Part shown: positions 3,988 through 29,966 of the stretch, in pieces | Numbering within the stretch: position 1 is the stretch's first letter | Layout: each line of letters begins with the position of its first letter | Assembly (NCBI RefSeq): GCF_018881715.1 | Contig: NZ_JACVPW010000001.1 | Location: 241,337 to 273,336 of the forward strand | From: Polynucleobacter parvulilacunae | Lineage (GTDB): Bacteria > Pseudomonadota > Gammaproteobacteria > Burkholderiales > Burkholderiaceae | Length of the DNA stretch: 32,000 nt | Direction: 5' to 3' | Made by a program: the position numbers and the translations under genes | The notes under the pieces: generated by a model | What the model was told of the DNA's origin: nothing | The model's database searches: none | What the model saw: only the letters and a program-made list of their open reading frames with translations

Positions 3988-4004
3988 TGTCGTTTTAAAC
4001 GACA
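3988..4004. repeat. palindrome S1 TGTCGTTTTAAACGACA (17/17)
   Basis: Exact 17-bp palindrome, 121 bp from the tRNA 5' end, just inside the left island border. Confidence 0.9.
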
Positions 4005-4379
4005 GTTTTACCCTTGAAATCTATAAACGAAACTAGCTAGAATGAAAGCGCCCATTTCGGGTTAATTAGAAAGGTGATTTATGTCACAGTTTTTGTTAGC
4101 CCCATCTCAATACACATCCACTAGTGTGAGAGCTTAACTAAAAGGGGTAACGAGGAAACAACGCAAAAAGTTGGCGCTTTGTAATAAAGCGAGCTACTTC
4201 CAGTGCTTGATAGTGGTCATAACTGGGACCGAAAGGTGTAATGCGGGAAGTTGTTAGTTAAGCCTGCCAACCTTCATACCACTTAGGTGGAGACTATGAA
4301 GCAGAAGTTGATATTGAGGCAGCTTCCGTTTCCGCCTACCGCAGCATTCTTTTAAAAAATATGAAATGCAAAAAAATTC

Positions 4380-4622
4380 ATGGCCAAACCAACTTTAGCT
4401 GCTGATCAAATTCAAGCTGAACTCCAACAGCAAGTAAACAACATACAAGAAATTCGCGAAGATAATGCCACCGCTATTGTTCCACTTCCCTACCTGCATG
4501 AAAGAGATGAATTAGGATGCAACTGGAATATATCTTCCATTAGAGGTGGCAATGGATACATGGGCGCAATTGGCAGAATAGTTTCCAACTATAGGATGCA
4601 GGTTGACCTAGCCCATGACTAG
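4380..4622 (+). CDS. hypothetical protein (80 aa)
   Basis: The ORF overlaps the next gene by 8 bp, which suggests coupling. I recognise no motif and the ribosome-binding site is weak. Confidence 0.4.
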   Translation: MAKPTLAADQIQAELQQQVNNIQEIREDNATAIVPLPYLHERDELGCNWNISSIRGGNGYMGAIGRIVSNYRMQVDLAHD

Positions 4623-5238
4623 TTACTGGTGGATTCTGATTCCCATTGCGGGATTACTTGGCTACTCGGCCAAAACTTATCGCGCCTATCAATTTCAAAA
4701 TCTTGGTGAAACCCTAGTTCGCAGAGCTTTAACTGGATACCTACCATCACATTCATGGCATCTTTTAAATAATGTCACATTACAAACTCCTGACGGAACT
4801 ACCCAAATTGACCATGTTTTAGTTTCACGCTTTGGGGTTTTTGTAATTGAGACCAAACATTACAGGGGTTGGATTTTTGGTGACGGCAAATCTAAAGAGT
4901 GGACGCAGGTTGTATGGGGTCGAAAGTATCGATTCCAAAACCCTCTTCACCAAAACTACAGACACCTTAAAGCAATAACTTCCACGCTCGATTTCTTAAC
5001 CCCAGAGCAGATTTTTGGCGTTGTAGTATTTACTGGTGCAGCTGAATTTAAAACAGAACAGCCTTCGAACGTTTATTCGCTTGAAGGCCTCTTATCTCAC
5101 CTAAAAAATCTAAATCAGGAACTTATCACCGAAAATAGAATGCAGTTTTGCGTAGGAAGGTTAGAGTGCATACGTCTCGCCTTGACCCAAGAGACGGACA
5201 TTGAACATCGAATCAATCTAGCCAAGAAATATCGATAG
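4615..5238 (+). CDS. NERD (nuclease-related domain) protein with N-terminal TM helix
   Basis: The pattern IDHVLVSRFGVFVIETKHYRGWIFG is the D..(D/E).K-type NERD core. It is preceded by a hydrophobic helix, WWILIPIAGLLGY. Confidence 0.75.
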   Translation: MTSYWWILIPIAGLLGYSAKTYRAYQFQNLGETLVRRALTGYLPSHSWHLLNNVTLQTPDGTTQIDHVLVSRFGVFVIETKHYRGWIFGDGKSKEWTQVVWGRKYRFQNPLHQNYRHLKAITSTLDFLTPEQIFGVVVFTGAAEFKTEQPSNVYSLEGLLSHLKNLNQELITENRMQFCVGRLECIRLALTQETDIEHRINLAKKYR

Positions 5239-5240
5239 GT

Positions 5241-5633
5241 CTATAAGTTTTTTGTAGCAATATCAACTTCACTACAAAATCTATTTTTCTCTTCAAAACC
5301 CCACTGACATTGCCATACCCGCCCATCAAGGCTGTCAGTTAAAAGAAAATTCCACATATTATCTGTAGCAGTCAAATAGAAACGGCCATCTACTTCTTTA
5401 TCTGTCAGAATTTTTGAGGAAAGCACGGTTGGCCCACTATACCCATCTTTAATTGAATATTGCTCTTGCCATATACGCCCATTGCGGGAATCGAGAAGCA
5501 AGAAATTCCACATGTTCTGCGTTTTATACAAAACAAATCTTTTAACCTCAATCTTTGAAGAGGCAAAGGGGGATCCGTCACATCCAACTAAGAATAAGCA
5601 AAGAATAAAACCAATCAAAATACTCTTTTTCAT
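5241..5633 (-). CDS. lipoprotein with an internal tandem duplication
   Basis: Signal peptide plus lipobox MKKSILIGFILCLFLVGC and a strong SD (GGAGGAAAG ATG). Two copies of an NMWNFLL.DS..GR.WQ.Q motif are present. Confidence 0.6.
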   Translation of the reverse strand: MKKSILIGFILCLFLVGCDGSPFASSKIEVKRFVLYKTQNMWNFLLLDSRNGRIWQEQYSIKDGYSGPTVLSSKILTDKEVDGRFYLTATDNMWNFLLTDSLDGRVWQCQWGFEEKNRFCSEVDIATKNL

Positions 5634-5654
5634 CTTTCCTCCGAATATTGATAT

Positions 5655-7640
5655 TTAAATTTCTTCAATTCCACAGCCTTTAAGGAATCGATAGGTTTGG
5701 TCATAAAAATCTTTTTGTCGTGTTGGATCAGAATCATCACCCTCTGGAACAAATATCACAACCCCCTGTCTTCCACGAGTTAGCAGTACCCGATAAGAGT
5801 TAGCAATATATTTTTGTTTTTCTAAGCCATGTACTGTTTGCCACTTAGAGCCGGAGAAGTTATAGGTGACCCACTTACCATCTTCAATTCTGAAGTTCGC
5901 ATCCCAGCAAACGCCAACCCAATCAATTTCCAGGCCCTGCACATCAAACTCTGTTGCCACATCCTCTAAATAGTGTGATGAGCGAATATCACTCTTGCCC
6001 TTAAGGAACCAAAGTGTCGGGTCTATTTCACCCTTCACAAATATTCCCGATGGTTTAAGCCTTATTGCATTTGATGAAGCAACGAGTCCAATGCGCTCAG
6101 TCCCTCTAGCCCAGTCCTTCAATCTATCTTTTGCCCTATCTAGTTTGCGTGTCAAATAAATTGGATAGCTATTTATATGCTGCTTTATCTCTCTTGCCTT
6201 ATTTGAATCCCCAGAAATTAGAGCGCCAACAAAAGCTGATAATTTCTCCGCCCTAAACGAGCGCAGGGAAACAGACAGATTTAGATCTGGCTCAATATGC
6301 AAATTGAGTGGACCTTGATCCTCAAGCCACTCTTTACTCAAAGCGTAATCAGACTTAAATATTTCGTCTGAGAAATGTATTTCCCAGTCTTGATAGTGCT
6401 CTTTTAATGCTGTGATCCACTCTGTAATTCCAGCTTCACCAGTATTAATTTCTTGACCGCCTCCAATCAAACAAACGACCACACACCAATCCTTGTGACG
6501 GTTCATTACAGAAAGCAAGAAATCAGGTTCGGACATGGAAAAGTTATCTTGTCCACGCTTACGCTTCATAAATGATGAAGCCTGCTCCTTATTCCAAGCT
6601 CGCTGCGCTTCATCAAATATCACGACTTTTTCAACAGGTGGCGCATCGGACGCTAAATTGTCATCCCGGAAGTGGTGAATATTTTGAATGAAAGCTGCAG
6701 CCTTTTGTTCGGCTGGCTTTCTTTTAATTCTTTCTTCTTTTGGCAAAAAATCATTCTCAGCCAATTGATCCTGCACTAATGCTTCGCGCAATACGGCCAC
6801 CAATGGTCCATTGCCCGATAAGAAGACAGCATGTTCATTTTCAAGATATCGCATACGTTCAATAGCAATATTCAGCCCAGCCAAACTTTTCCCAGCGCCA
6901 GGTGCGCCCGTGATTAGGCAAATTACTTTTTTGTTATTTGCTTTTGCGTCATCAATAACTTTTGATACATGGCCGCATGTCTTGGTTAGATTTATTGCTC
7001 CAGCATCAGATCGCGATATTTCATCTACTTTATGGCCTTTATACAAAGCCTGAGCAGCTTCAACAATAGTAGGGGTTGGATGATAGGTAGAGCTTATCCA
7101 AATACCAGGATCTAAGTCTACCTTTGGTAAAGAGATTGATACAAGATTAAGAGCATCCAATAAATTATTAGAGTTTGCCAGGACGGGGCTTGCTACACCA
7201 TCATTCCCAATCACTAATTTCTGCGCTTTTCCTGGAGCATCTGTAGCCACCAAAATTGGAATGATGTTTAAGTGATGGCTAGCCTTATGAAAATTCTTTA
7301 AATCCAAAGCGTAGTCATGGGCTTGATCTATTGAGATGGTGTCATACGACTTGGCGCCAACCTTGTACTCCAAAACTACAATAGAGCCATCTAATATGAG
7401 AATGGCATCAACACGCTTGCCAATCCTGGGTATCTCAAATTCAAGCAATAAGGTTGCCTTTGGAAATCCAACCAAGATCTGCTTAAGTTCAATAATTTGC
7501 CTACGCCAAGCATTAATTTGCTGTTGCTCTAATTGCCTGAATTTATGTTGATTTGTTAGCTGACCCAAGATTTCATCATCTTGAGTGGTACGGAAGCTAC
7601 TTACTTCCGCTTTATAGGCAAAACGATTAGATAAATTCAT
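5655..7640 (-). CDS. DUF2075-type protein: N-terminal PD-(D/E)xK-like nuclease module plus P-loop NTPase/helicase-like domain
   Basis: N-terminus RIGKRVDAILILDGSIVVLEYKVG, Walker A GAPGAGKS, Walker B VVIFDEAQ, and the C-terminal YRVLLTRGRQGVVIF typical of this family. Confidence 0.75.
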   Translation of the reverse strand: MNLSNRFAYKAEVSSFRTTQDDEILGQLTNQHKFRQLEQQQINAWRRQIIELKQILVGFPKATLLLEFEIPRIGKRVDAILILDGSIVVLEYKVGAKSYDTISIDQAHDYALDLKNFHKASHHLNIIPILVATDAPGKAQKLVIGNDGVASPVLANSNNLLDALNLVSISLPKVDLDPGIWISSTYHPTPTIVEAAQALYKGHKVDEISRSDAGAINLTKTCGHVSKVIDDAKANNKKVICLITGAPGAGKSLAGLNIAIERMRYLENEHAVFLSGNGPLVAVLREALVQDQLAENDFLPKEERIKRKPAEQKAAAFIQNIHHFRDDNLASDAPPVEKVVIFDEAQRAWNKEQASSFMKRKRGQDNFSMSEPDFLLSVMNRHKDWCVVVCLIGGGQEINTGEAGITEWITALKEHYQDWEIHFSDEIFKSDYALSKEWLEDQGPLNLHIEPDLNLSVSLRSFRAEKLSAFVGALISGDSNKAREIKQHINSYPIYLTRKLDRAKDRLKDWARGTERIGLVASSNAIRLKPSGIFVKGEIDPTLWFLKGKSDIRSSHYLEDVATEFDVQGLEIDWVGVCWDANFRIEDGKWVTYNFSGSKWQTVHGLEKQKYIANSYRVLLTRGRQGVVIFVPEGDDSDPTRQKDFYDQTYRFLKGCGIEEI

Positions 7641-7678
7641 TTATACATTTTGACATGAGTTCGTGAGATCAAATCATT

Positions 7679-7695
7679 TTTCGTTTTAAACGACA
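7679..7695. repeat. palindrome S2 (16/17)
   Basis: TTTCGTTTTAAACGACA, ending 59 bp upstream of the integrase ATG. Confidence 0.85.
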
Positions 7696-7754
7696 TTTTC
7701 AGGTTGCCCAAAGCTACACACCGAAATTAAGCTATGTTTTTCAGCTAGAGAAAC

Positions 7755-9026
7755 ATGCCCAAAGAAACAGAAGTGCTTGCCCTTTTCTTTCAAAGCACCT
7801 CTACCCCTGAAAAATCACCCCAACTTAAATATCTAGAAAACCTTGCTACTGGCAAGCTAGTGCATATGAGAGATGGCAACATTACCTTATATAAGCGTGA
7901 GCGTAGCAAGCAATGGCAAATGCGCTTTAGGCTTTATGACAAGAAGTGGCACAGAGTCAGTACTGGCTACGAGGATCTGGAATATGCCAAAAAGAAAGCG
8001 GGTGATATTTACGATAGAGCCCGCTTTATGGAGGAGCTGGGATTACCGCCCTTAAACAAACGCTTTGATTCAGCGGCAGAAGCAACCAAAGTAGAACTAC
8101 AAAGCGATTTAGATAATGGCGTGGGCAAGAAAATCTATGTGGATTACATAGCTGTACTTGATAACTACCTGATTCCATTCTTTGGCAAGAAATTCCTAAC
8201 CAATATCAATCACCAAGATATTGCCGAGTACGAACTATGGCGAGCAGAGAAGATGAAACGCAAACTCATGCACTCAACCATGATGACGCACTTCTCTGCC
8301 TACAACAGGGTATTTGATTCAGCAATCAAGCGAGGATGGCTAAGCGATAAACACCCAGTTCCAAGGCTAGGCACTAAAGGCGAAAAGAGTACGCCAAGAC
8401 CCGCATTTACTAGAAAAGAGATTGATTACCTATTTGTCTTTATGAAAACTTGGAGTGAAGGCGGCAAAACAGAGGAAGCACATAACGGCAGATTGCTACT
8501 TAGGGACTACATAGAGATACTCATGGCAACAGGTATGCGCCATGGCACTGAAGCAAAGAACATTCAGTGGAAACACTTGGAGTGGCATACAGACAAGAGC
8601 ATTCGATATCTACGCATATGGGTAAGTGGCAAAACCGGTCCACGCTGGCTAATTGCAAGGCATGAAGCAGTACCCGTCATTGAGCGCCTCAAACAACGCT
8701 TTACTGAATGGGATCACTTAACGCTAGATCAACTCATAGAAGAAAAGCATGAAGAGTATTTGTGGCGGCATCCTAATGGCGAGCGCCCTTATGATTTTGT
8801 CAGTAGCTTTAAGTGGCTTATGAAGGATTCGGGCTTACTGCTATCAACTAACGGCTTAAAACGCACTTTGTACAGCTTTAGACACACCTACGCTACGTTT
8901 AGCTTAGTGGAGTGGAATATGGACATTCATACGCTAGCAAAGCAAATGGGCACGTCTGTACAAATGCTAGAACGCTTTTATAGCAAGCTCACAGCTACGC
9001 TAGCTGCAGAGAAATTAGCGGGATGA
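7755..9026 (+). CDS. tyrosine-type site-specific integrase (423 aa)
   Basis: C-terminal catalytic signature: ATGMRHGTE (Arg), SFRHTYAT (H-x-x-R), ...MGTSVQMLERFYSK (Tyr). The N-terminal arm-binding-like region is ITLYKRERSKQWQMRFRL. Confidence 0.9.
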   Translation: MPKETEVLALFFQSTSTPEKSPQLKYLENLATGKLVHMRDGNITLYKRERSKQWQMRFRLYDKKWHRVSTGYEDLEYAKKKAGDIYDRARFMEELGLPPLNKRFDSAAEATKVELQSDLDNGVGKKIYVDYIAVLDNYLIPFFGKKFLTNINHQDIAEYELWRAEKMKRKLMHSTMMTHFSAYNRVFDSAIKRGWLSDKHPVPRLGTKGEKSTPRPAFTRKEIDYLFVFMKTWSEGGKTEEAHNGRLLLRDYIEILMATGMRHGTEAKNIQWKHLEWHTDKSIRYLRIWVSGKTGPRWLIARHEAVPVIERLKQRFTEWDHLTLDQLIEEKHEEYLWRHPNGERPYDFVSSFKWLMKDSGLLLSTNGLKRTLYSFRHTYATFSLVEWNMDIHTLAKQMGTSVQMLERFYSKLTATLAAEKLAG

Positions 9027-9031: not shown

Positions 9032-9048
9032 TGTCGTTTTAAACGACT
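9032..9048. repeat. palindrome S3 (16/17)
   Basis: TGTCGTTTTAAACGACT, starting 6 bp after the integrase stop codon. Confidence 0.85.
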
Positions 9049-9479: not shown

Positions 9480-9875
9480 TTAGAGCGGTTTGGGCGTTTC
9501 GCCTCTTAAGTAGTCCCGAAACATTTTTAAGTCTTGAGGCGATTTAGTGGTGATTGTGGGTCCTGTTGTAGCCGGCGACTTAGGTTGCAAAGGCGCAATC
9601 GTTTTAGCTTGAGCAACGGGCTTAGCTACTTTTTGCTGTGCAGCCTGTACTGGCCTAGCAACCGGGACAGGTATTGCTCTTTGCGGCAAACTCACCGCCT
9701 TGGGTTTAAGTGTCTTTGGGGCTTTGGGTGTCTTACTCTTGGGCTTACTGGCTTGCGCCGCCTTTTGTTTAGCCTGTGCGCTTGCTTGCTGGCTAATGGC
9801 ACTCCAGGTGTTATTCATAATGACTCGCAATAATCCTAGCTGATCTTCTGCATTGGCAATCTCATACATTCTCAT
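9480..9875 (-). CDS. hypothetical protein with a Lys/Pro/Ala/Gln-rich low-complexity centre
   Basis: 131-aa ORF with a good SD (GGAAAGGAGAAGGCC ATG). No domain is recognisable. Confidence 0.5.
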   Translation of the reverse strand: MRMYEIANAEDQLGLLRVIMNNTWSAISQQASAQAKQKAAQASKPKSKTPKAPKTLKPKAVSLPQRAIPVPVARPVQAAQQKVAKPVAQAKTIAPLQPKSPATTGPTITTKSPQDLKMFRDYLRGETPKPL

Positions 9876-9930: not shown

Positions 9931-10080
9931 CTAAACTTCTGTCGGCAAATGCACCACATTGTTTGCACCATACTGCCCTTGCAATAGGAAATAAGCGGCT
10001 TGACTGTTATCGGCTACTACTTGAGTTTGTACTACCCAGCCCTGCGGCTGTATGCGTACATAGGCTACATATGTTTTCAT
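9931..10080 (-). CDS. possible small protein (49 aa), not in the ORF track
   Basis: Reads MKTYVAYVRIQPQGWVVQTQVVADNSQAAYFLLQGQYGANNVVHLPTEV. It fills the gap between two co-oriented genes. There is no further support. Confidence 0.25.
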   Translation of the reverse strand: MKTYVAYVRIQPQGWVVQTQVVADNSQAAYFLLQGQYGANNVVHLPTEV

Positions 10081-10136
10081 CTAATCTATCCATAGAAGAA
10101 GCACTAATACTATGATCAGTATTAGTGCTTGGCTGT

Positions 10137-10574
10137 TCACTTACCAAACCCAGCACGTACAGCGCCGCTAGCTTGCTCTATTTGGGTGTCTAACTCTCCC
10201 GCCTCCACCGCACCCTTAATGATCTCTAAGGCTTTGATAAGCTCATCTGCAGTAGCAACTTCAACAGCCGTTTTGCCTTTTGCAAACTCAATTACGCGAC
10301 TTCCATAGCGCACGTTTAAACAAACCTTGCCGTCACTAGACACAAACCACCACTGACGTACACGCTTTTGATGCTCTACGGTTTTACGTGACCCGTCATA
10401 GTCTTTCACTGATTTAAATTTCTTCACAGTAAAAGTATTGCCTTCGCGCTGGGCTTTAGCTAACTGGATCTGTTCCCATACTTTTGTAGAGAGCTTATTG
10501 CGTCGCTGCAAAATGGGTGGAATAGACGTTGGCTTTTTGGAATTAACCATTTTCAAACTGTTTAATGTGCTCAT
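10137..10574 (-). CDS. hypothetical protein (145 aa)
   Basis: ORF with SD (AGGAGAAATGAA ATG). It is basic at the N-terminus and I recognise no motif. Confidence 0.55.
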   Translation of the reverse strand: MSTLNSLKMVNSKKPTSIPPILQRRNKLSTKVWEQIQLAKAQREGNTFTVKKFKSVKDYDGSRKTVEHQKRVRQWWFVSSDGKVCLNVRYGSRVIEFAKGKTAVEVATADELIKALEIIKGAVEAGELDTQIEQASGAVRAGFGK

Positions 10575-10719
10575 TTCATTTCTCCTTTGTAGTTAATGGG
10601 CACACTTAATTTATGGTCAGAGTTTTTGGTTGGACAACCTCTTTTTGCCAATATCTGCCAGAACCAAAGGATTTATGCCAGATCTACTCTTCTTTTATTA
10701 GGTTTTGCTAAATACTTTC

Positions 10720-11789: not shown

Positions 11790-12356
11790 ATGTCACAAGC
11801 AAAAACATTAAACACAATAGAACTACGTAGAGTGCTAGATCACATCGCTACACGCAAGCATTCAGCCCGCAATCGATGTGCCCTGCTTTTAACTCATCTC
11901 TCGGGGATGCGTGTCGGCGAGGTTGCCGCCCTACGTATTTGTGACGTTTTAAACGACAGCGGAACGATTAAAGATGAAATCCGCTTAAAGCCAGAGCAAA
12001 CTAAAGGCAAATATGCCAGGACTGTTTATATCAATGCCCGTATGCAAAAAGAAATAGCTCAGTACATCAAGCTAATCCGCATTACAGATACCAATAAGCC
12101 CTTGTTCTACACCCAAAAACGAGCTGGGTTTTCAGCAAATACACTTACACAGTACTTTCACTTCTTATATAGACGAGCTGGACTTGAGGGTTGTAGCTCA
12201 CATTCGGGAAGAAGATCGTTCTTAACTTCGTTGGCGAATAAAGGTACAGCTATACATATATTGAAATCCCTCGCGGGACATCGCAACATTAGTACGACCG
12301 CTGGATATCTGTACTCCAGCCCAGATCAGATGAAAGCTGCCGTAGAGTTAGTTTAA
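11790..12356 (+). CDS. small tyrosine recombinase, catalytic domain only (188 aa)
   Basis: The catalytic set is complete: GMRVGE (Arg), TKGKYARTV (Lys), HSGRRSF (H-x-x-R), GHRNISTT (His), AGYLY (Tyr). There is no N-terminal core- or arm-binding domain. Its size resembles FimB/FimE-type invertases. Confidence 0.85.
   Translation: MSQAKTLNTIELRRVLDHIATRKHSARNRCALLLTHLSGMRVGEVAALRICDVLNDSGTIKDEIRLKPEQTKGKYARTVYINARMQKEIAQYIKLIRITDTNKPLFYTQKRAGFSANTLTQYFHFLYRRAGLEGCSSHSGRRSFLTSLANKGTAIHILKSLAGHRNISTTAGYLYSSPDQMKAAVELV
11942..11958. repeat. palindrome S4 (16/17) inside the small recombinase CDS
   Basis: TGACGTTTTAAACGACA, read in frame as C-D-V-L-N-D-S. Confidence 0.8.
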
Positions 12357-13130
12357 TAACTCCCTTGCTTCTGGAAGATAGTCGCTAGTGTCTGGAAATC
12401 TACCAACTGTTGCATTAGCGATTAACTTTTTTGTATTTTCTAGGCTATACATCAACGCACCATGCAACTTAGATCTATCGGCATCTGTCACTCTATTTGT
12501 TACCTCAGGGCTACCCAACAGCCCATGCTTCTGAGCAAACTGATAGGCAATAAAATCCTCTTCAACTGATTCGGTTTGATAATCAGAATAAATTTCAAGG
12601 TCTTTTTTAATAACCTCATATCCAAACTTTTGTCCCAGTTGGAATATCTTTGCATTGGCAGTAGTGTTATCAAAGATGCTAAATTTTCTACGCTCCTGGT
12701 AAGCCTCTTGCATTCTTAATACTTCATCAAACTGTCTTCTCAATATTTTGATATCCAAGTGCAATGGCACCTCGAGTAAAAGTGTTGGTGGCTCATTAGG
12801 ATCTTTGGACTGTTTTAATTTGTAATCCAAGGTAACTGGCTTAATTTCAGTAAAGGGAATTCTCTCCTTGAAAATTTTGTAGCCAGTAGCCTTCCACCAC
12901 TTCTCAAAAGTCAAGTTACTTAGATCACCAAACAGTTTAAAAGTATCGGCAATTGCCTGATTCTTGAACTCTTTAGTCTTCTGAGCTTCAACATACCAAG
13001 GCGATGCTTTAAGCACATCAAACCATGACTCATATATGGAGTGCTTGGCCTTAGAAGCCGCTACTTCAAGGCTAAAGCCGTAGATATCGTCTTCTACTGG
13101 AAAGCCTTTATAAAAGTGTAACTCGTCCAT
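12348..13130 (-). CDS. hypothetical protein (260 aa)
   Basis: Long ORF convergent with the small recombinase, with a 9-bp overlap at the 3' ends. I recognise no motif. Confidence 0.55.
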   Translation of the reverse strand: MDELHFYKGFPVEDDIYGFSLEVAASKAKHSIYESWFDVLKASPWYVEAQKTKEFKNQAIADTFKLFGDLSNLTFEKWWKATGYKIFKERIPFTEIKPVTLDYKLKQSKDPNEPPTLLLEVPLHLDIKILRRQFDEVLRMQEAYQERRKFSIFDNTTANAKIFQLGQKFGYEVIKKDLEIYSDYQTESVEEDFIAYQFAQKHGLLGSPEVTNRVTDADRSKLHGALMYSLENTKKLIANATVGRFPDTSDYLPEARELLN

Positions 13131-13274: not shown

Positions 13275-14078
13275 ATGGAAATTCTAGCAAACGAAGCAAT
13301 CGAAGTAAAAATTTCATCCATTGCATCTAATGATGACAATACGGTTGGTAATGCTGTAGAGCATAAGCCAGCTACTACATTGCATTATTCAGTAGCAGCA
13401 CTTAAGGATATGGAAGCAGCTCGCATTAACTGGGAGCAAGGCTCATTCCGCAAAAGCAATGAAGAGCTCTATGCAGTCTTGCAACAATGCAAAGCATTCT
13501 GTGGCGACTTACTACCAGCCGATGCAAAACAACGTTCAGCCGCTTTAGAGAAGTTCTACAAAGAGCGTGGCTGGCGCTACAACAAAGAAACACCGATCGA
13601 GACTCGCGTTCTTCGCGCTGTCTTTGGCATGGAAAACCGCCGTCGCGTGAGCAGCTACTCCTTGGTGCTACGTGAAGCAAAGAAACAACGTGTTGGTATT
13701 TCAAGCCTAGCGACATGGATTGAGGACCAAGGAGGCATCCAAGAGATTCGTCTTAGCCAAAGCAAGACGTTTATTTCGCCAGCTGAGAAAGCTGAAATTA
13801 TGAAAGAGCGTTTTGCTTCACGTAAGTTTTTTATTGGCTACGCTAAATCCGAGCTTCTCTCGCATTGTGCAGATGCAGAGTATATGGATGATGACTGCGT
13901 ACTACTAAGTAAGCAACTCTCAGATGGCTCGTTTGGCATCTACACAATCCTTCGCTCCTCAGGCGTTATGAACGCATCTTATGTTGCAGCTTATGCCAAA
14001 GCTGAGGAGATCGAAGCGCAAGCCAAGAAGGAAATTGAGGCTGCTAATGATGCGGATGGACAGCCTGTAGCGGCATAA
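13275..14078 (+). CDS. hypothetical protein (267 aa), possible DNA-binding protein
   Basis: ORF with SD (AAAGGAAATAAC ATG). The acidic C-terminus and a possible HTH near RVGISSLATWIEDQGG give only weak support. Confidence 0.55.
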   Translation: MEILANEAIEVKISSIASNDDNTVGNAVEHKPATTLHYSVAALKDMEAARINWEQGSFRKSNEELYAVLQQCKAFCGDLLPADAKQRSAALEKFYKERGWRYNKETPIETRVLRAVFGMENRRRVSSYSLVLREAKKQRVGISSLATWIEDQGGIQEIRLSQSKTFISPAEKAEIMKERFASRKFFIGYAKSELLSHCADAEYMDDDCVLLSKQLSDGSFGIYTILRSSGVMNASYVAAYAKAEEIEAQAKKEIEAANDADGQPVAA

Positions 14079-14085: not shown

Positions 14086-14111
14086 GGTGGCAACTGCTAC
14101 AGGTTGCCACC
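14086..14111 (+). other. GC-rich 9-bp stem-loop between two co-oriented genes
   Basis: GGTGGCAAC-tgctacag-GTTGCCACC with no T-tract. This argues that the next CDS starts at 14132 rather than 14087. Confidence 0.4.
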
Positions 14112-14131
14112 AACTATTACAAGGAAAAGAC

Positions 14132-14803
14132 ATGTTTAATGAAGATCAAATCAAGCCAAAAACTGTAAACGACTTTATTTACAGCAACAAAGAATCACGT
14201 TTACGTATAGAAGATGTCGTAACCGGTGCACAACCTTTGCCATATGCTGGCAAGAGTGGTGTTTTACTATACGGCGTCTATGGCACAGGCAAAACCACTC
14301 TAGCCAATATCTTGCCAAACGCAATTGAAGTAGGCACCACAGGCCATGTTCAGGCACTACCTGAGTACTACATTGGATGTCGCCAAGGTTTAAATGGGGT
14401 TCAAGTATCGCAAACGATCGATAAGATTCTTGCCACACAAGCACTAAATGCTAGCGGTAAGCACTACATCATTCTTGATGAGGTTGATGTACTTACAAAG
14501 CAAGCGCAGGAAAGCCTTAAGTCATCACTTAATACCACTCGTGGTGTATTTGTTTTAACGACCAACAGCGTATCTAAGTTAGACAAGGGCTTACTTGATC
14601 GTTGCGTACTCGTTGAGATGAATGCAGCTGATCCAGAAGCCTATCTACCACTAGCTCACAAGATCACTGCGGCTCATGATGTCGTTTTAAACGACGAAGA
14701 TCTAATCCCAACCATCAAAGGGGCCAATGGATCACTACGTAATGTCATTAATAACGTGGCTCGCCAAGCTCGTCGTTCTAAATCAACCCAATCAGCCATC
14801 TAA
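14132..14803 (+). CDS. AAA+ ATPase, clamp-loader (RFC/DnaX)-like
   Basis: Walker A GVYGTGKTT, Walker B ILDEVDVL, sensor-1 VFVLTTN, an SRC-like LLDRC motif and the GSLRNVINNV helix typical of clamp-loader small subunits. Start chosen at the ATG after SD AAGGAAAAG. Confidence 0.75.
   Translation: MFNEDQIKPKTVNDFIYSNKESRLRIEDVVTGAQPLPYAGKSGVLLYGVYGTGKTTLANILPNAIEVGTTGHVQALPEYYIGCRQGLNGVQVSQTIDKILATQALNASGKHYIILDEVDVLTKQAQESLKSSLNTTRGVFVLTTNSVSKLDKGLLDRCVLVEMNAADPEAYLPLAHKITAAHDVVLNDEDLIPTIKGANGSLRNVINNVARQARRSKSTQSAI
14680..14696. repeat. palindrome S5 (16/17) inside the AAA+ CDS
   Basis: TGTCGTTTTAAACGACG, read in frame as D-V-V-L-N-D-E. Confidence 0.8.
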
Positions 14804-15512: not shown

Positions 15513-15609
15513 TATCGTTTAAAACGACACTTCATTACACACTTACCAAACATTGCTCTAGCCTTTTGAATTTTCTACAGAAAATATTAGTGCGATCTAT
15601 TACCACTCC
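15513..15609 (+). repeat. 97-bp composite repeat R6 (includes palindrome S6, 15513..15529, A-centred)
   Basis: TATCGTTTAAAACGACACTTCATTACACAC - 38-nt variable middle - AAAATATTAGTGCGATCTATTACCACTCC. It has the same length and end blocks as R8 and R9. Confidence 0.85.
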
Positions 15610-15655
15610 GAGCAGGTTAATTCAAGATTCTGCCCAGTAACTAAAGATTCCAAGG

Positions 15656-17240: not shown

Positions 17241-20200
17241 TTCTTGATCCTCTTAATAAGTTCAATTAAACGATCAAAGTGAATTTCTTCTTTAAGCTCA
17301 CCCCAATTATTTAATGCCCCGAACCGCTCATAGAGTTTGGGCAAAAGTAGCAAGGTTAATAAAGTTGATGTAATCAATCCACCAATCACCACAATCGCTA
17401 AGGGACGCTGAATTTCAGAACCTGGCCCCGTGGCAAAAAGAAGTGGAATCATTCCAAGGGCGGTAATAACTGCCGTCATCAGTACGGGGCGTAAACGCCT
17501 TTCAGTACCAAAGTGAATGACATCAGACATAGAGTCGCCTTTAACCAGACGCTCATTAAAGTGAGTGACCATCACCACCCCATTAAGGACGGCAATACCA
17601 AGTAATGCAATAAATCCGACCGATGCTGGCACAGAGAGGTATTGACCAGTTATGGTTAAAGCAACCACACCGCCAACCAATGCAAATGGGATATTAAGGA
17701 ATATGATCCCAGCCTGTATTGCCGAGCCAAAGGTCACCATCAGTATGGCGAAGATTAATCCCAATGCAATTGGGATCACAATAGCTAGCCTTGCAGCAGC
17801 CCTTTGTTGATTTTCAAACTGCCCTCCCCAAACCACATTGATAGTTTTAGGCAAGCTCAACGCAATCACTGCCGCCTGAGCATCCTTTACAAATCCTGCT
17901 AGATCTCTGCCATCAACTGACACTTGAATGCTAGCAAAGCGACTTGATTGCTCATGGTCAATCCGAATAGGTCCATCGATTTGCTTAATTTCAGCTAGTG
18001 ATGCTAATGGCCATGATTTGCCATCAGGCGCAGATATTAGCAAGTCGCTAAATGCTTCTGGGCTTGTACGAATGTAATCATTACCTCGAAGCACCAATGG
18101 CGTTCTGATGACACCATCTAAAACCACTCCAAGATTTTCACCCTCAATTTGATTACGTAATCGCTGCTGCAAGTCTTCAATCGAGAATCCAGCCTGCCCA
18201 GCCACGGTACGGTTAATCTTTAGGCTTAAGTACTGCATTCCTTCAGCACGAGGTGCAATTACCTCAGCCGCACCCTTAACATTCCGAACTGAGCCAGCTA
18301 TAGCTTGTGCAGCCTTATTAATTTCAACCAAATCACCGCCGAAAATTTTGATTGCCACATCACCGCGGGTTCCCGTAAGCATCTCGGAGACACGCATTTC
18401 AATGGGTTGGGTGAATCCATATACTAATCCAGGGAAATTCTCTAAGGTAGTCCTTAGCTTATTGGCAATATCGTCCTTGTTGCCAGACCATTCACTTTTA
18501 GGCTTGAGCACTAAAAACATATCCGTTTCATTTAAGCCCATAGGATCTAAACCCAAATCATCTGAACCTGCTCTGGCAACAATGGATTTGATCTCAGGAA
18601 CTTCTTTTAAAAATAACTGCTCCACCTGAGAATCAATGATGAGTGATTCATTTAAGGATATTGATGGGAGCTTTTGCAGCTGAACCAAGATGTCTCCTTC
18701 ATCTAGAGTAGGCATAAAGGTTTTTCCCACAATCATATAAAGAATTACCATCACACCCAACCCAATGCCAGAAGCCCTGTAAAGCCACTTGGTATTGCCC
18801 CAAACCTGATTGCGCCACTCAACATATTTCTCTGAAATCTTGCGCATGAACTTTGTCTCTTCATCTGCTTTACGCTCTAAAACAAATGAGGCTAAAGCGG
18901 GAATGACAGTAAATGCAATTAATAAGGATGAGGCGAGCGCCATAACAATTGTTAGCGCTACAGGTGAAAAGAGCTTGCCCTCCAAACCTTCAAGACTGAG
19001 CAATGGAAGAAAAACTACAGCAATAATCAATACACCAGCTACGACCGGCTTAACAACCTCATGAGTAGCAATGGAAATGATTTCCGTCTTACTTAATGCT
19101 TTTGATGTATTGGGATCAGCAAAGGCTGTTTCTACATTTTCAACCACCACCACCGCAGCATCAACCAACATACCAATAGCAATGGCTAATCCGCCCAAGC
19201 TCATCAAGTTGGCCGTTAGGCCGAATGCCTTCATTAAGATGAATGTAGAAAGTATTGAGAGCGGAAGGACAGCGGCAACCACCAGAGCGGCACGATACCC
19301 CCCTAAAAATAGATACAAAGTGATGCATACCAAAACGGTAGCTTCAAGCAAAGCCTTTGTTACAGTACCTGCTGCACGGGACACTAATTCACCACGGTTA
19401 TAGAAAGTATTTACGGTCATGCCTTTTGGCAACCTTGGTGCAATCTCAACTAGTTTTTGCTCAACCGAATCAACTAGAAGGCGAGCATTAGCGCCGCGCA
19501 AACCTAAGACCAAACCTTCTACTGCCTCTCCTTTTCCATCTTTAGTAACGGCGCCATAGCGAGTGGCCGACCCTAGGTGGACTGTAGCCACCTCATCGAG
19601 CATGACTGAGCCACCATTTGCTTTAGGGATCTGGATCTTTTTGACATCGTCCAGTTTTTTAACCGCTCCCTCAACACGAACTACTAACGTCTCCTCGCCT
19701 TGATCAATACGCCCAGCACCATCATTACTATTGTTAGTCATTACCGCTTTACGAAGATCTACCATCGTAATTCCACGAGCAGCCAATCGGGATGGATCCG
19801 GTATCACCTCATAAGTCAAAATCTCTCCGCCCAAGACATTGACTTCAGCCACACCAGGAATGGTTCGGAGCTCAGGCCGAATGATCCAGTCCAACACGGT
19901 GCGTTTATCTCTTAAGCTAAAGCCCTCACCCTCAAGAGTGAACATATAAATTTCACTTAAAGGGGTGGTAATTGGCGCCAGCCCACCAGTAGCGCCAGGC
20001 GGAAGGTCTTTTGTAAATGCATTCAAACGTTCCGAGATTTGCTGACGAGCCCAATAAATATCAGTACCATCGTCAAAATCAATCGTGATATCAGCAATGC
20101 CGTATTTAGATACCGATCTTACAATCCGCTTCTTAGGAATACTAAGCATTTCAATTTCAATCGGACGAACTACCCTCTGCTCAACCTCTTCAGGCGTCAT

Positions 20201-23612: not shown

Positions 23613-23629
23613 TGTCGTTTTAAACGACA
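23613..23629. repeat. palindrome S7 (17/17)
   Basis: Exact copy between the MarR-like stop (23694) and the MFS start (23588), ending 24 bp upstream of the MFS ATG. Confidence 0.9.
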
Positions 23630-23693
23630 TGGACTGCGTAGGGACGGAGAATTGATTTTGCCCTTTTAAAGAGCAACTCTTGATGAGTTCCGC

Positions 23694-24174: not shown

Positions 24175-24271
24175 TGTCGTTCAAAACGACACTTCATTAC
24201 ACGCTCATTTAAATCATTTGCAACCGCTTAAATTACTTGCTGAAATTATTAGTGCGATCTATTACTACTCC
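24175..24271 (+). repeat. 97-bp composite repeat R8 (includes palindrome S8, 24175..24191, A-centred, 16/17)
   Basis: TGTCGTTCAAAACGACACTTCATTACACGC - 38-nt variable middle - AAATTATTAGTGCGATCTATTACTACTCC. Confidence 0.85.
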
Positions 24272-24320
24272 TAGGCTCTATTTAACGGCCGCTTAAGACC
24301 CAAAGAGCGGCCATAACAAG

Positions 24321-25764: not shown

Positions 25765-25800
25765 AGCACTCTCCCTTACTTTATCTATACCTATATATGG

Positions 25801-26264: not shown

Positions 26265-26285
26265 GAAAGCCTCCTTTTTGAGCTT

Positions 26286-26900
26286 TTATTCCATCCTACA
26301 AAAGCAATATAAGAATTGTTGGGTAGTGCCCATTGGTGTTTTATGGGTTTCAGTTGAACTATTAATGAGCTTAAAAGTCTTGCCAAACTGTCCATGGAGA
26401 TTCTCTGAGTCATAGCGAACGACATCCAACCCACTACATTTCTCAGGGCCATCTGGACCAAAAGTGGACATAATCACATAACCACCATGCTTAACAGAGC
26501 GCATCACTTGCTCTACATATCTGGCTCGCTGAGCTTCTTCCGTTAAAAAGTGAAATACAGCTCTGTCGTGCCAAACATCAAAATAATTCTGAGGAAGCGT
26601 TGCCTGAGTAATATCAGCACAATACCAATGTACTTCTTCTGCTGACTTTCCCAGCCTTTCTCTAGCGACATCAATTGCTTTCTGAGAAATATCTAAAACA
26701 CTGATGTCTTGGTAACCCTCAAATAAAAGGTCGTCAACTAAAGTAGCTTCGCCGCCACCGATGTCAATAATCGCGGCATCTTTATTGGCTGTTGCTTTAT
26801 GAATGAGATTTAAGGAAGTTTCAAGATGGGGCGTATACCAACTGACAGCATCTGGTGCCTTAGTGCCGTAGACTTTTTCCCAGTGTTCTTTGTTATCCAT
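26286..26900 (-). CDS. class I SAM-dependent methyltransferase
   Basis: Motif I IIDIGGGEATL followed by the acidic loop VLDIS, in a 204-aa Rossmann-type protein. Confidence 0.8.
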   Translation of the reverse strand: MDNKEHWEKVYGTKAPDAVSWYTPHLETSLNLIHKATANKDAAIIDIGGGEATLVDDLLFEGYQDISVLDISQKAIDVARERLGKSAEEVHWYCADITQATLPQNYFDVWHDRAVFHFLTEEAQRARYVEQVMRSVKHGGYVIMSTFGPDGPEKCSGLDVVRYDSENLHGQFGKTFKLINSSTETHKTPMGTTQQFLYCFCRME

Positions 26901-26951
26901 AATTACCTTTCACATAATTATTTGATTCATTCTATGCTCATTAGAGCAGTT

Positions 26952-27048
26952 TGTCGTTTTAAACGACACTTCATTGCACACCCACTTTAATCATTCTTAA
27001 GCACTTGAATTGACTAAAGAAATTATTAGTGCGATCTATTACCGCTCC
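26952..27048 (+). repeat. 97-bp composite repeat R9 (includes palindrome S9, 26952..26968, 17/17)
   Basis: TGTCGTTTTAAACGACACTTCATTGCACAC - 38-nt variable middle - AAATTATTAGTGCGATCTATTACCGCTCC. Confidence 0.85.
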
Positions 27049-27079
27049 GTGAACTCGCTAGGACTGAAATTTTTATTTG

Positions 27080-28018
27080 CTAATTTTTACGATTCTTACT
27101 ACCTATCTCGTCCATGCCATCAAGATAGTCTGAGAGCAGGTTTCGATCTGCAAGTACTCTAAATATATTACGTTGAGCAGCATGCTCTCTATGCGAGTCC
27201 TCTATTCGACACCATGAACACAGCTCTAAACCTGATACAAGTGGCTCCTTGCATGATCTACAAGTCTTCGAAGATTTAATAATTTCGACATCATTGAAAC
27301 TTAGGATATTACCCTCTAGATCAGAAAAAAATGGTTCTACAGACCCTTTTCCGATTTTCATTTCGTAATAATTACACCCGAGTTCTTGTGCATTTTTTCG
27401 CACTTTTTTAATGGTCTCTGTATTGGCCTTTGGTCCACATATAAGAGCTTTTATGCAATCTTTTGGCACATCTATCAACATAGAACTCTCATCAGACAAC
27501 CTTATTGCAGAGTCATTTACCACCATTCTACGTTCATGCTCATAACTCCAAGATGTTGCTTTTGAAAAATACGCAGCACTAAAAACTGAATTTTGAAGAA
27601 AATAAATGTATCTAGGCTTTCCTATTACAGATGCGTGATGGAGCCATTCAAATGTATCTTCATTTGGCGTATCTCGGTATTCAATATCATTGAATATACT
27701 GTTAGGAAAGTGCTCCGATAAACAGTTTTCATCAAACTCTATTACGAACCCTTGCATAGACTGGGCATAATGGGCCCACATGGGAATAACCGTCGGAGAG
27801 CGTGAAAAACAAGTAGTAGGTCGTTGAGGCAACTCGCCAATTACATCACTGTAAAAAGCCAAGTGATTTGGCTCAATCTTTGAATCAACTGCCAAGAAGA
27901 GCTCATATGGATCATTGAAATCTTTGGGATAAGAGCATTTCAACGTGACAAGATTCGCACTAGCAAATACATCATTAATATATTCAGGACTTACATACTT
28001 ATATAGATTTCTTCCCAT
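27080..28018 (-). CDS. DUF2971-like protein with a C-terminal Cys4 zinc-ribbon-like motif
   Basis: N-terminus LYKYVSPEYINDVFASANLVTLKCSYPKDFNDPYE fits the DUF2971 signature. The C-terminus reads CRSCKEPLVSGLELCSWC. Confidence 0.6.
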   Translation of the reverse strand: MGRNLYKYVSPEYINDVFASANLVTLKCSYPKDFNDPYELFLAVDSKIEPNHLAFYSDVIGELPQRPTTCFSRSPTVIPMWAHYAQSMQGFVIEFDENCLSEHFPNSIFNDIEYRDTPNEDTFEWLHHASVIGKPRYIYFLQNSVFSAAYFSKATSWSYEHERRMVVNDSAIRLSDESSMLIDVPKDCIKALICGPKANTETIKKVRKNAQELGCNYYEMKIGKGSVEPFFSDLEGNILSFNDVEIIKSSKTCRSCKEPLVSGLELCSWCRIEDSHREHAAQRNIFRVLADRNLLSDYLDGMDEIGSKNRKN

Positions 28019-28133
28019 AGCTTCCGCACCAATCTGAATGCATTAAATATTGATTAATACTAACAAGATAAGGAGCTACTTATTTGCTTGACCTATAATC
28101 AAAATAACCAATTGCCCAATTTGGAGCGTTTAG

Positions 28134-28937
28134 ATGTCCATAGAAGTTCTCGACTCATCAGCTTGGCGTGAATTTCGCGGCACACTAAGTAACTCGGGCA
28201 TCAATAAAACAACTCATTTAGCAAAAATTGCTGACATCTCAGGGAAACTTCGAGATTGCGTAGTAAAGCTACTACCCTTGAATTACCCCTCTCTTCTCGG
28301 AGAAGCAATTGGCTGGGAACTAGCCCAATCATCCGGGCTCTCTTGTGCACCATTTGCTGCAATAGTTATGGTTCCGATTTCCAGCCTACGCGAGTGCATG
28401 GACCTTCCTTCTGAATTTGATGGTATGAATGAATGCCCTGCTTGGTGCTGCGAACTTGTCGCAGGTAAGTCTGTTCGACAAGTTCACAAATGGCTGTTTT
28501 GGCTGGCCCGCCAGCAATGTCTTATGAGCAAAGATGCACGAAAAATAGCATCATTTGATTTATGGACTGACCTAATGGATCGAAATTATGGAAACGTAAT
28601 TCGAGTATCAAATAGCACCTACATCTCTATTGATCACGAGACAATTCTTCACGATTTGCTTTGGAAACCAACTGGGAAAACTTTTGAACAAAGAAGTTTG
28701 CTTTTAGAAGCCAAACAGAAACTGTCGCCAAGTAACCTTCTTCGCTTTCAAATGGATATGGCCAATGCATCAACAAAACACGCAGATGCAATATCAACCA
28801 AACAAAATGAGCTTTCTCAAATTATCGCAATGATTTATCCTCATATGGCGAGCACACTAATACCTTTGACTATGAGCACATTAACTCAGCGATCCCAATC
28901 TGGATGGCTTGCAAATACCTTAGGGGTCATAGCATGA
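28134..28937 (+). CDS. kinase-fold protein, HipA-like (putative)
   Basis: SD GGAGCGTTTAG ATG. The catalytic-loop-like FDLWTDLMDRNYGNVI followed by SIDHE resembles HipA/PI3K-type D-x-x-x-x-N ... D motifs. Confidence 0.5.
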   Translation: MSIEVLDSSAWREFRGTLSNSGINKTTHLAKIADISGKLRDCVVKLLPLNYPSLLGEAIGWELAQSSGLSCAPFAAIVMVPISSLRECMDLPSEFDGMNECPAWCCELVAGKSVRQVHKWLFWLARQQCLMSKDARKIASFDLWTDLMDRNYGNVIRVSNSTYISIDHETILHDLLWKPTGKTFEQRSLLLEAKQKLSPSNLLRFQMDMANASTKHADAISTKQNELSQIIAMIYPHMASTLIPLTMSTLTQRSQSGWLANTLGVIA

Positions 28938-29851
28938 GCAAAAATAAAATTCAGTTTGATGAGGATTTCTCTCATCTACAACGTCTCGCCAAAAAACCCC
29001 CTAAAGCCCTATTTAATGGGGCTTGGAGCACTTTAGAGCTCCAACCAGATGCATTTTCTCCACAACGCTTCACAATTGGAGTTGTCGTTCAGACTCCAGG
29101 CGAACGTTTGCATTTTAAATTACTAGATGATTTCAAAAAATTTGAATGCATATACAGAGATAGCTTTCCTCAAAAATCAATCCGAGAAATAATGACTTAT
29201 GCTGAGGAGCTTTTAAGAAAATGTGTACATAACAAAACTAGCATTCCAGAAATTGAATTTAGTACTAATTGCCTTAGTCTCTCTAAACCACTCTTCATAT
29301 CTGGAGATAATTGGGAAACAACTATAGAGCGACTATTTAAAGAGGTTGTAGCTATGGCTCCAAGTACTGCCTCAAAATCCTATGGATTCGAGTCTATTGA
29401 CACGCCACATGCAAGAAAAATCGTTAACGATGAATTAAAACGTATAGCAAACTTGGACTACGATCGGATTGTTAATCAAAATAGTCAAGGGGTTTTGCTC
29501 GAAGAAGCTGGGGAGTTCCATCATTTAGACCTAAACCTCATCACTACACGAGCATGTGGAAGCGTGATTTCTGCCGTCTATAAGTCAACCCAAAGCGTTG
29601 AGCTAAACCTTCTTAAATCCAGCCGAGATCTGACTACCTATTCCCGAGTTAAGGATCTTAAACATGTTGGCCTCTTTCTCCTCACTCCAGACCCTGATTC
29701 CATAGACTCAAAAGATTTCAAAAAAATTGAAAATGTTATTGATGAGTATGAGTGGAAGTTAGAACAAGATGGCTTTCAAGTTGTAAGCCTTCCATCACCC
29801 ATAGATTTGGCAACAGAGATTTACAACTGGGCTAAGCCCACTTTTGCATAA
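28934..29851 (+). CDS. DUF3037-like protein (305 aa)
   Basis: The start shares an ATGA overlap with the upstream stop codon. The N-terminal LELQPDAFSPQRFTIGVVVQTPGERLHFKLLDD resembles the DUF3037 signature. Confidence 0.5.
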   Translation: MSKNKIQFDEDFSHLQRLAKKPPKALFNGAWSTLELQPDAFSPQRFTIGVVVQTPGERLHFKLLDDFKKFECIYRDSFPQKSIREIMTYAEELLRKCVHNKTSIPEIEFSTNCLSLSKPLFISGDNWETTIERLFKEVVAMAPSTASKSYGFESIDTPHARKIVNDELKRIANLDYDRIVNQNSQGVLLEEAGEFHHLDLNLITTRACGSVISAVYKSTQSVELNLLKSSRDLTTYSRVKDLKHVGLFLLTPDPDSIDSKDFKKIENVIDEYEWKLEQDGFQVVSLPSPIDLATEIYNWAKPTFA

Positions 29852-29949
29852 AGCTAAAGCGATGGCGCCCAACAAGCAATTAAAAATCCTTCAAAAGGCC
29901 TTAAACGGGCCTTTACGAGCATATCCAATATCACCTAAGACAAACCCTC

Positions 29950-29966
29950 TGTCGTTTTAAACGACA
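29950..29966. repeat. palindrome S10 (17/17)
   Basis: Exact copy 233 bp inside the right island border. The following roughly 78 nt end in CCGCTCC at 30044, so this may be a degenerate 95-bp relative of the 97-bp element. Confidence 0.9.

Follow-up and report, generated by a model that had tools for sequence, protein, structure and literature searches.

The window analysed here, a stretch of 32,000 nt from Polynucleobacter parvulilacunae (contig NZ_JACVPW010000001.1, positions 241,337 to 273,336), contains a genomic island integrated at a tRNA-Met gene, and along this island a 17-bp palindromic sequence, TGTCGTTTTAAACGACA, is repeated ten times. A large family of tRNA-integrating ‘additive’ islands has this palindrome as its signature dyad, and the palindrome travels with a conserved backbone that encodes a 423-aa tyrosine integrase, a DUF6641 protein, a 188-aa tyrosine recombinase (REC188), a 267-aa protein (p267) and a clamp-loader-like ATPase.

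The tRNA-Met (CAT) gene that served as integration target lies intact at the left end of the island (3791–3867, minus strand; called by ARAGORN, Rfam score 67 bits), and the flank to its left carries recX, recA and DUF2878, as judged by homology to the corresponding island of Polynucleobacter sp. MWH-UH25E (CP061286.1; L121 in our set of loci). The island limits put forward in the original prediction were recovered in the form of this tRNA gene and a 61-nt direct repeat, whose left copy (attL, 3822–3882) comprises the tRNA-Met 5′ half to the anticodon loop plus ~15 nt upstream and is 92% identical to the right copy (attR, 30192–30252), a displaced 5′ half of the gene; identity between the two starts at TTATGAT, within the anticodon loop. 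These limits show the window to hold a Polynucleobacter ‘additive’ island inserted in the tRNA-Met anticodon loop. Since the repeat spans the 5′ half and the ~15 nt upstream of it, the intact tRNA gene owes its 5′ half and its promoter-proximal DNA to the island, an unusual polarity, whereas additive tRNA islands usually supply the 3′ half.

Searching both strands of the window for TGTCGTTTTAAACGACA with up to two mismatches yields ten matches (S1 to S10), which start at 3988, 7679, 9032, 11942, 14680, 15513, 23613, 24175, 26952 and 29950; four match at 17/17 and six at 16/17 positions (better strand), and the centre base is A in S6 and S8 and T in the remaining eight. No match occurred in 100 dinucleotide shuffles of the window, none lies in the 5.6 kb of flanking DNA outside 3988–29966 at the same tolerance, and allowing four mismatches brings in no additional site of the type within the window. 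This search confirms the original prediction in its coordinates, match counts and central bases, and in holding the palindromes to be beyond chance and confined to the island. Its statement that the eight intergenic copies mark seams between blocks stands in part: eight of the ten are indeed intergenic (the exceptions are S4, in the REC188 gene, and S5, in the ATPase gene), but the left edge of one exchanged cargo slot (slot A, at ~4635) bears no palindrome. Eight of the ten are internal to the island, that is, beyond the att (attachment) arms.

The dyad has the general form TGTC-N9-GACA, the version in the window being TGTCGTTTWAAACGACA, and comparison of 285 distinct sites reveals constraint at all 17 positions. 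Its central heptamer is TTTWAAA in 200 of these 285 sites (S8 deviates, with TTCAAAA), position 5/13 alternates between G/C and C/G, and beyond the 17-mer there is a weak A/T preference and nothing more. Operators of phage lambda are likewise 17 bp long with a central base pair, and as far as sequence can tell the anatomy of the site fits a protein-bound dyad, although a crossover site of 5-7-5 geometry would be matched equally well. A fixed promoter element as general role is ruled out, as no −10-like hexamer stands at a constant offset from the dyad over 311 non-redundant flanks; at S9, the right half-site could act as a −35, 17 nt ahead of TAGAAT. A structured RNA was likewise rejected, because an Rfam scan of the window (E ≤ 1) gave the tRNA, two chance-level matches and nothing else.

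From left to right, an 80-aa backbone open reading frame (ORF; 4380–4622, plus strand; 94% amino acid identity in MWH-UH25E) is followed by slot A (4615–7640), which encodes a NERD protein, a 130-aa ORF and a Schlafen-like helicase (PADLOC PDC-S41). S2 (7679–7695) lies in the divergent region upstream of the gene for the 423-aa integrase (7755–9026, plus strand), a protein with an arm-binding-like N-terminal beta domain, and S3 (9032–9048) lies 6 nt past its stop codon. The backbone continues with the genes for DUF6641 (10137–10574, minus strand), REC188, an Xer-like recombinase consisting of the catalytic domain only (11790–12356, plus strand), the hypervariable 260-aa protein p260 (12348–13130, minus strand), p267 (13275–14078, plus strand) and the 238-aa clamp-loader/RFC-like AAA+ ATPase (14087–14803, plus strand). 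S4 (11942–11958) is within the REC188 gene and S5 (14680–14696) towards the 3′ end of the ATPase gene, with 31 nt separating it from the next ORF; the backbone further holds small ORFs, including two after the ATPase gene. Beyond it, the S6–S7 block carries RND/MFP/OMP efflux genes and an MFS transporter, the S7–S8 block a MarR-like protein, the S8–S9 block DUF6803, HMA, DUF2789 and a methyltransferase, and the S9–S10 block DUF2971 (PDC-S31), a HipA-like kinase and a 315-aa protein; past S10 come the att arm and then attR. Cargo modules are multi-gene units found in both orientations, with terminators of their own.

The island of MWH-UH25E, inserted in the same tRNA-Met gene beside recA, shares the backbone of the window while all of its cargo differs (the genes of slot A, for example, are replaced by unrelated ones); a constant backbone with different cargo in related strains is also seen in additive islands and elements accreted from integrative and conjugative elements and their cis-mobilizable derivatives (ICE-CIME accretion). 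The palindromes of the two islands match at backbone positions: after the tRNA (at 2716, the counterpart of S1), upstream of the integrase gene, 6 nt past the integrase stop codon, at offset 152 of REC188, 107 nt before the ATPase stop codon (the place of S5) and after the last backbone ORF. The positions of S2, S3 and S5 are conserved between diverged islands, this pair included, and that of S3 is kept in more than 20 related loci (flank family 6).

S1 (3988–4004) and S10 (29950–29966), at the inner edges of the attL-side and attR-side arms, bracket the tRNA-Met att repeat and mark the outer limit of conservation in the island's att arms; the attR arm (30028–30242) is homologous to 18936–19150 of MWH-UH25E, the start of which adjoins a palindrome. 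Each arm also carries phased (T)ACGGT(G/A) direct repeats, candidate classical arm-type sites, with three in the attL-side arm (3940–3975, plus strand; partly kept in MWH-UH25E) and two in the attR-side arm (30113–30135). When palindrome flanks were clustered, each read from the palindrome outward, the largest family, with 30 members among which is the right flank of S7, had the order TGTCGTTTTAAACGACA, 29 nt, TGTCCTTTTAAAGGACA, ~80 nt, terminator, tRNA end, the last being either a tRNA gene's 3′ end or a partial copy of ~25 nt. Another family has three successive dyads ahead of the tRNA, and family 2 is the opposite arm, in which the palindrome is followed after ~215 nt by the 3′ half of tRNA-Phe (anticodon loop to CCA). 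Families 0, 2, 3, 8 and 9 are of arm type, so that sites occur in both arms around the core. In many genomes the unit at the tRNA-Phe hotspot reads dyad, arm, att core, terminator, arm, dyad(s), cargo, a layout that makes the dyads the outer limits of an attP-like region, and S1 and S10 are shown to fill at tRNA-Met the role that the dyads have at this hotspot.

The interior copies at the cargo seams carry traces of the same arms. S7 and a degenerate second palindrome at 23659–23675 (together 23613–23675) are the remnant of a two-palindrome, tRNA-proximal arm that leads to a tRNA 3′ end in 29 other loci. S6, S8 and S9 each adjoin a ~100-nt att-arm remnant (15513–15612, 24175–24274 and 26952–27051, palindromes included, all on the minus strand; extensions at 15530–15612, 24192–24274 and 26969–27051), that of S6 ending the RND/MFS efflux module and that of S8 the DUF6803/HMA/DUF2789/methyltransferase module. 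Within the extension, conserved boxes GGTAATAGATCGCACTAATAAT and GTGTGTAATGAAG flank a variable hairpin with some compensatory changes, a structure weakly supported by ten related copies and matching no Rfam family. The extension recurs in three other genomes and three times in MWH-UH25E, where a terminator and a tRNA-Phe 3′ fragment (13472–13496) stand ahead of the arm; the window contains no tRNA-Phe fragment. Internal att core copies between modules are present in MWH-UH25E and at tRNA-Phe hotspots. Because they carry remnants of arms that elsewhere adjoin tRNA-Phe fragments, S6 to S9 look like the ends of accreted cargo modules. Serial accretion, the last of three explanations offered in the original prediction, thus finds its best support at the cargo seams (the S7 arm and the S6, S8 and S9 arms), but leaves S2, S3 and S5 unexplained, as their positions are kept in diverged islands.

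A single scan for the exact 17-mer across a 596-Gb genome collection, in which locus counts are lower bounds, found it at more than 119 genome loci, mostly in Polynucleobacter or in freshwater betaproteobacterial metagenome-assembled genomes, the latter including, among the matches listed, Limnohabitans, Comamonadaceae and Methylophilaceae. Among these same listed matches, many loci hold 2–4 exact copies per 8 kb, and more if mismatches are permitted, while Polynucleobacter contigs of 0.3–2.1 Mb have their matches in one 8-kb block or two adjacent ones. Such restriction is the opposite of the chromosome-wide spread of repetitive extragenic palindromes (REPs), the pattern that the original prediction had set against its own proposal. 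Motif-bearing loci (among those listed) encode homologs of the integrase (9), DUF6641 (12), REC188 (14, all full length) and the ATPase (8), and also of p267. Stray single matches in unrelated phyla are at about the level of chance for a 17-mer in 596 Gb. In Pelagibacteraceae, eight genomes (L035, L055, L062, L073, L075, L099, L109, L116) share a conserved locus with a single exact 17-mer; these eight show no second copy and no island genes nearby, and the match is probably due to chance in AT-rich DNA. In P. paneuropaeus (L122) there are two backbone sets (12–578 and 10001–10567), that is, two REC188 and two integrase genes in 20 kb, which are tandem elements of this island family.

The dyad also varies with lineage. 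Four loci (L004, L122, L190, L193) have GTCC...GGAC at backbone positions where others have GTCG...CGAC, a symmetric change, and the integrases of the four group in a single clade (WHCRF...WHRQTT within the N-terminal beta region) that is 80–84% identical to a sister clade using GTCG. The GTCC-type elements are likewise grouped by p267 (71% vs 55–60%), but REC188, the ATPase and p260 show no grouping by dyad variant, REC188 being ~90% identical between GTCG-type and GTCC-type elements. An attempt to name the binder by covariation failed, since the integrase and p267 both track GTCC in what is effectively one lineage. Further variants, TGTCGTGCAACACGACA, TGTCGGGTCAAACCGACA and GTCTTTTCAAAAAGAC, occur in other lineages (L151, L191, L196/198/201), and in a distant family (integrase ~46% identical) CGTAAAAATAATTTACG stands close to either end of the element, a single time at each, and nowhere else; one dyad per arm seems to be the general state, with interior copies an elaboration of the Polynucleobacter lineage. 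Some distant relatives have single 17-bp palindromes, AGCGAACTGCGTTCGCT or ACACAACGCAGTTGTGT (L162 at 7901, L171 at 15384, L187 at 5189, L168 at 4496/4581), those of L162, L171 and L187 in the divergent region between REC188 and DUF6641.

Copies within genes share one reading frame, in which GTC-GTT-TTA-AAC-GAC encodes VVLND, as at S5. S4 encodes DVLND, and its GAC-GTT-TTA-AAC corresponds to a DVLN coding motif found throughout the REC188 family, so that S4 as an independent site is mostly explained by the conserved DVLN(D) motif. The N-terminal ~40 residues of p267 are hypervariable, with predicted disorder, and yet VVLND is nearly invariant there in most lineages, which argues for selection at the level of DNA; the p267 gene of the window itself has no 5′ palindrome.

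In several comparisons, sequence homology between islands breaks off at a palindrome. Past the exchanged slot A, homology between the window and MWH-UH25E restarts exactly at S2 (the alignment segment begins at 7681), and a stretch that takes in the methyltransferase gene, the 52-nt leader of this gene and S9 shows 99% identity with Polynucleobacter sp. 31A-FELB (L103), stopping exactly at the outer edge of S9. Other clear cases surround the integrase gene (L190/L193, L190/L122, L193/L122, L004/L122). Among motif-selected loci, 35 of 240 unique, non-edge ends of high-identity segments fall within 5 nt of a palindrome, against 2.4 expected (1000 permutations, permutation maximum 10), much of which signal is attributable to conserved arm units that end at the dyad. 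In an unbiased sample of 80 integrase-selected metagenome loci, enrichment is weak, with 4 of 212 segment ends no more than 5 nt from a palindrome (1.1 expected) and 11 of 212 no more than 20 nt away (rough expectation 2–3 from site density). The notion that every palindrome is a recombination point was dropped on account of this weak enrichment. Identities of backbone proteins are incongruent between elements, so the backbones are mosaics, and no inversion or deletion with palindrome junctions was found among close relatives.

Which island protein might read the dyad can be narrowed to a few candidates. The integrase matches a PHROG integrase family (E=1e-30), has conserved RHTY-type catalytic motifs in the alignment and is ordered as N-terminal beta-rich, SAM-like and catalytic domains, the first with an arm-binding-like sequence pattern. 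REC188 has more than 6000 homologs, nearly all ~188 aa long (the closest, at 97%, in MWH-UH25E), and occurs in many relatives that have no dispersed dyads; it always adjoins DUF6641 and an integrase. It scores 38.7 bits against the integron integrase model TIGR02249 (cut-off 265), which the 423-aa integrase does not match, and 42 bits against the invertase model PRK09870 (cut-off 221), and is closer to Xer-type catalytic domains. The p267 family comprises ~1000 clusters at 50% identity (exhaustive profile search), and its gene is always followed by that of the clamp-loader-like AAA+ ATPase. p267 matches nothing in Pfam, NCBIfam, PHROGs or PADLOC, Foldseek found no counterpart for its AlphaFold model (pLDDT 75) in PDB or BFVD, ten longer family members contain no Pfam domain, and no relatives were found in phage or plasmid collections. 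Of 31 loci with a p267 profile match, 25 hold at least two dyads, and the five p267-positive loci without such a dyad (L162, L163, L171, L191, L198) all carry a dyad of another form. None of the island ORFs encodes a ParBc/KorB-related or ParA domain, or a REP-associated tyrosine transposase (RAYT; Y1 HUH type).

Taken together, we give a probability of about one half to the proposal that the 17-mer is the recognition dyad of an island-encoded DNA-binding protein, built into the att arms and into the joints between gene modules. Under this proposal, a dimeric protein would bind the dyad, the candidates being, in order, the arm-binding-like N-terminal domain of the integrase, p267 and another small backbone protein. 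The dyads at cargo seams would be the arm ends of modules without an integrase, brought in when these accreted into islands or were exchanged between them, and the dyads may double as preferred exchange joints because they are the sole stretches identical across otherwise diverged or unrelated DNA. The arm sites of lambda-family attP regions resemble this arrangement in occurring in both arms, 100–230 bp from the crossover, at the outer limit of the conserved att region, with an N-terminal beta-rich domain in the integrase here and a dyad variant that tracks one integrase clade. However, classical arm sites are short direct repeats (like ACGGT here) and not 17-bp perfect dyads, and are normally not scattered, whereas eight of the ten dyads in the window are internal (in distant relatives they are confined to the ends).

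Several observations weigh against this proposal. The dyad-binding protein would at present have to be sought among candidates. Covariation of the integrase with the dyad variant is a hint that comes from effectively one lineage and is confounded by linkage, GTCG-type dyads occur with very different integrase N-domains, and the dyad-rich contigs L146 and L187 have no p267 profile match. The ACGGT direct repeats of both arms resemble classical arm-type sites more closely than the dyads do, and dyads between convergent genes and within genes, with no −10 at constant distance, are unlike a simple operator. The internal seams of the window have no tRNA-Met or tRNA-Phe core copy, so that accretion there is a reading of the arm remnants. 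Finally, the sharp breaks at the dyad edge suggest active or preferred recombination, which binding alone would leave unexplained.

A second and more doubtful possibility is that the palindrome is the crossover (core-type) site of REC188, with 5-bp inverted arms around a 7-bp overlap (TGTCG-TTTWAAA-CGACA), and that recombination between palindromes excises, inserts, inverts or swaps blocks in the manner of integrons or pdif modules, but with multi-gene modules. It would account for the breaks exactly at palindrome edges (S9 with 31A-FELB, S2 with MWH-UH25E, and the integrase gene in L190/L193/L122/L004), for the 35 of 240 segment ends, for mosaic backbones with a dyad at nearly each gene boundary and for an integrase module that is bounded by dyads in two differing positions and orientations; it would also give a role to REC188, which is conserved and has no other assigned. 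The 5-7-5 geometry is that of these integrases' anticodon-arm core sites, the heptamer is identical in most sites, and homologous exchange between intragenic dyads, all in one frame, would keep that frame. However, the integrase-selected loci give only 4 of 212 ends and the strong signal is largely due to arm units; REC188 does not covary with the GTCG and GTCC types and is common in relatives without dispersed dyads; some dyads lie within backbone genes; a near-symmetric site offers no directionality; the S8 heptamer differs; and close relatives have no inversion or deletion at palindrome junctions. Of the core-site explanation in the original prediction, then, the breaks at palindromes remain in its favour, while the weak unbiased enrichment, the lack of REC188 covariation and the dyad-poor relatives with REC188 do not.

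An extension of this idea, in which the island would be an integron-like capture platform where REC188 shuffles multi-gene modules and in-frame backbone pieces with p267 and the ATPase as accessories, appears unlikely. Integron attC sites and the pdif modules of Acinetobacter do offer parallels, as unrelated blocks are each delimited by one recombination-type repeat, one module appears in differing contexts with the junction at the repeat (S9), and modules end with a ~100-nt conserved element and a variable hairpin. In contrast to integrons, the island encodes no IntI-type integrase, REC188 falling far below the model cut-off as noted above; attC is an imperfect palindrome of 57–141 nt at the 3′ end of single-ORF, promoterless cassettes of one orientation, where here a 17-bp perfect dyad accompanies multi-gene modules. 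Xer/dif systems differ too, pdif sites being 28 bp long (XerC arm, spacer and XerD arm of 11, 6 and 11 bp) and alternating in orientation around modules, where ours is a 17-bp symmetric dyad. REC188 shares with the FimB/FimE invertases its size class, little beyond a catalytic domain and the weak PRK09870 match, but its score is well short of that model, it is closer to the Xer type, and no inversion is seen among close relatives.

Still less probable, in our judgement, are dispersed operator or centromere-like sites for p267 and the AAA+ ATPase, serving silencing, partition or compaction as KorB does through its OB operators, with no direct role in att; the breakpoints would then come only from homologous recombination that resolves in 17 identical bases. 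The KorB operators of IncP-1 plasmids and parS sites are indeed similar in pattern, with about ten copies of a short palindrome in promoter, intergenic and intragenic positions, one copy lying inside a backbone gene, and this resemblance is what stands of the KorB/ParB-like explanation in the original prediction. Co-occurrence also favours p267 (25 of the 31 positive loci with at least two dyads, and the five with none all bearing a dyad of another form), as do a dyad at the 5′ end of its gene in most lineages, reminiscent of autoregulation, and its uniting of the two GTCC-type elements. Against this, the island encodes no ParB/KorB protein or ParA-type ATPase, p267 has no helix-turn-helix domain and no fold match, the p267 gene of the window lacks the 5′ dyad, and L146 and L187 have dyads and no p267 match in the contig; moreover, the dyads lie at att arms and joints, and such operators would not account for their closing both att arms, which they do also in integrase-less tRNA-Phe arrays. 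A generic host repeat of REP type, a terminator or an RNA hairpin foreign to island biology is largely refuted and very improbable: the dyads often stand directly past stop codons (S3 in the window, and copies behind REC188 and DUF6641 in relatives), could form a 7-bp hairpin and show a weak T preference immediately downstream, but the stem is short, AT-rich and without a T-run, there is no Rfam match, copies also lie upstream of genes, between divergent genes and within genes, the window flanks have none, and, unlike REPs and bacterial interspersed mosaic elements with their RAYTs, the dyad is island-clustered and not dispersed genome-wide (among the matches listed), with no RAYT-type transposase in the island.

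The cargo and neighbouring ORFs present some further features. Candidate anti-phage genes include a full-length PADLOC PDC-S41 match (5655–7640, the Schlafen-like helicase with its NERD neighbour) and the PDC-S31 (DUF2971) protein (27080–28018), and the integrase-adjacent slot of related islands carries defence-like genes (restriction-modification, DUF4011 helicase, DUF4379). A 131-aa ORF (9480–9875), 99% identical in metagenome contig L001, has a long Ala/Lys/Pro/Gln-rich low-complexity stretch that recalls histone-H1-like DNA-binding tails. Just upstream of the DUF6641 start lies a strong hairpin, GTGCTCAT...ATGGGCAC (10561–10609), with a chance-level match to the potC RNA family (25 bits vs a gathering score of 44).

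As to precedent, additive tRNA islands with gene cassettes, including a heavy-metal cassette, have been described in Polynucleobacter. The view of the original prediction that the architecture is undescribed agrees with the searchable literature, the island type itself being known. Neither the 17-mer sequence nor a dispersed dyad was found in the literature, in a coverage that does not extend to the 2017 AEM paper on P. asymbioticus islands. With additive islands and ICE-CIME accretion the window shares a tRNA hotspot, an att direct repeat at both ends, an element-encoded tyrosine integrase, a variable number of unrelated cassettes (metal efflux, defence), the same cassettes being shared across species, and internal arm remnants, relatives having partial tRNA copies between modules. 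It differs in that one 17-bp dyad closes every arm and flanks backbone genes, and in that the internal seams of the window have no att core copies. The searchable literature describes neither the backbone proteins nor a dispersed dyad that varies between lineages.

Polynucleobacter are among the most abundant freshwater bacteria, and their strain-level ecological differences have been ascribed to islands exchanged across species. A searchable 17-bp signature of arms and joints offers a practical handle for drawing module boundaries, for following how modules are exchanged across genomic and metagenomic data, and for seeking the proteins responsible for their assembly. The backbone that accompanies it is widespread and uncharacterised, with a minimal tyrosine recombinase, the p267 family and a clamp-loader-like ATPase. 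If the dyad were a recombination site, it would represent a new mechanism of cassette exchange; were it to serve as an arm or regulatory site, it would still stand out among att-arm elements in being palindromic, in varying with lineage and in having spread through the island interior.

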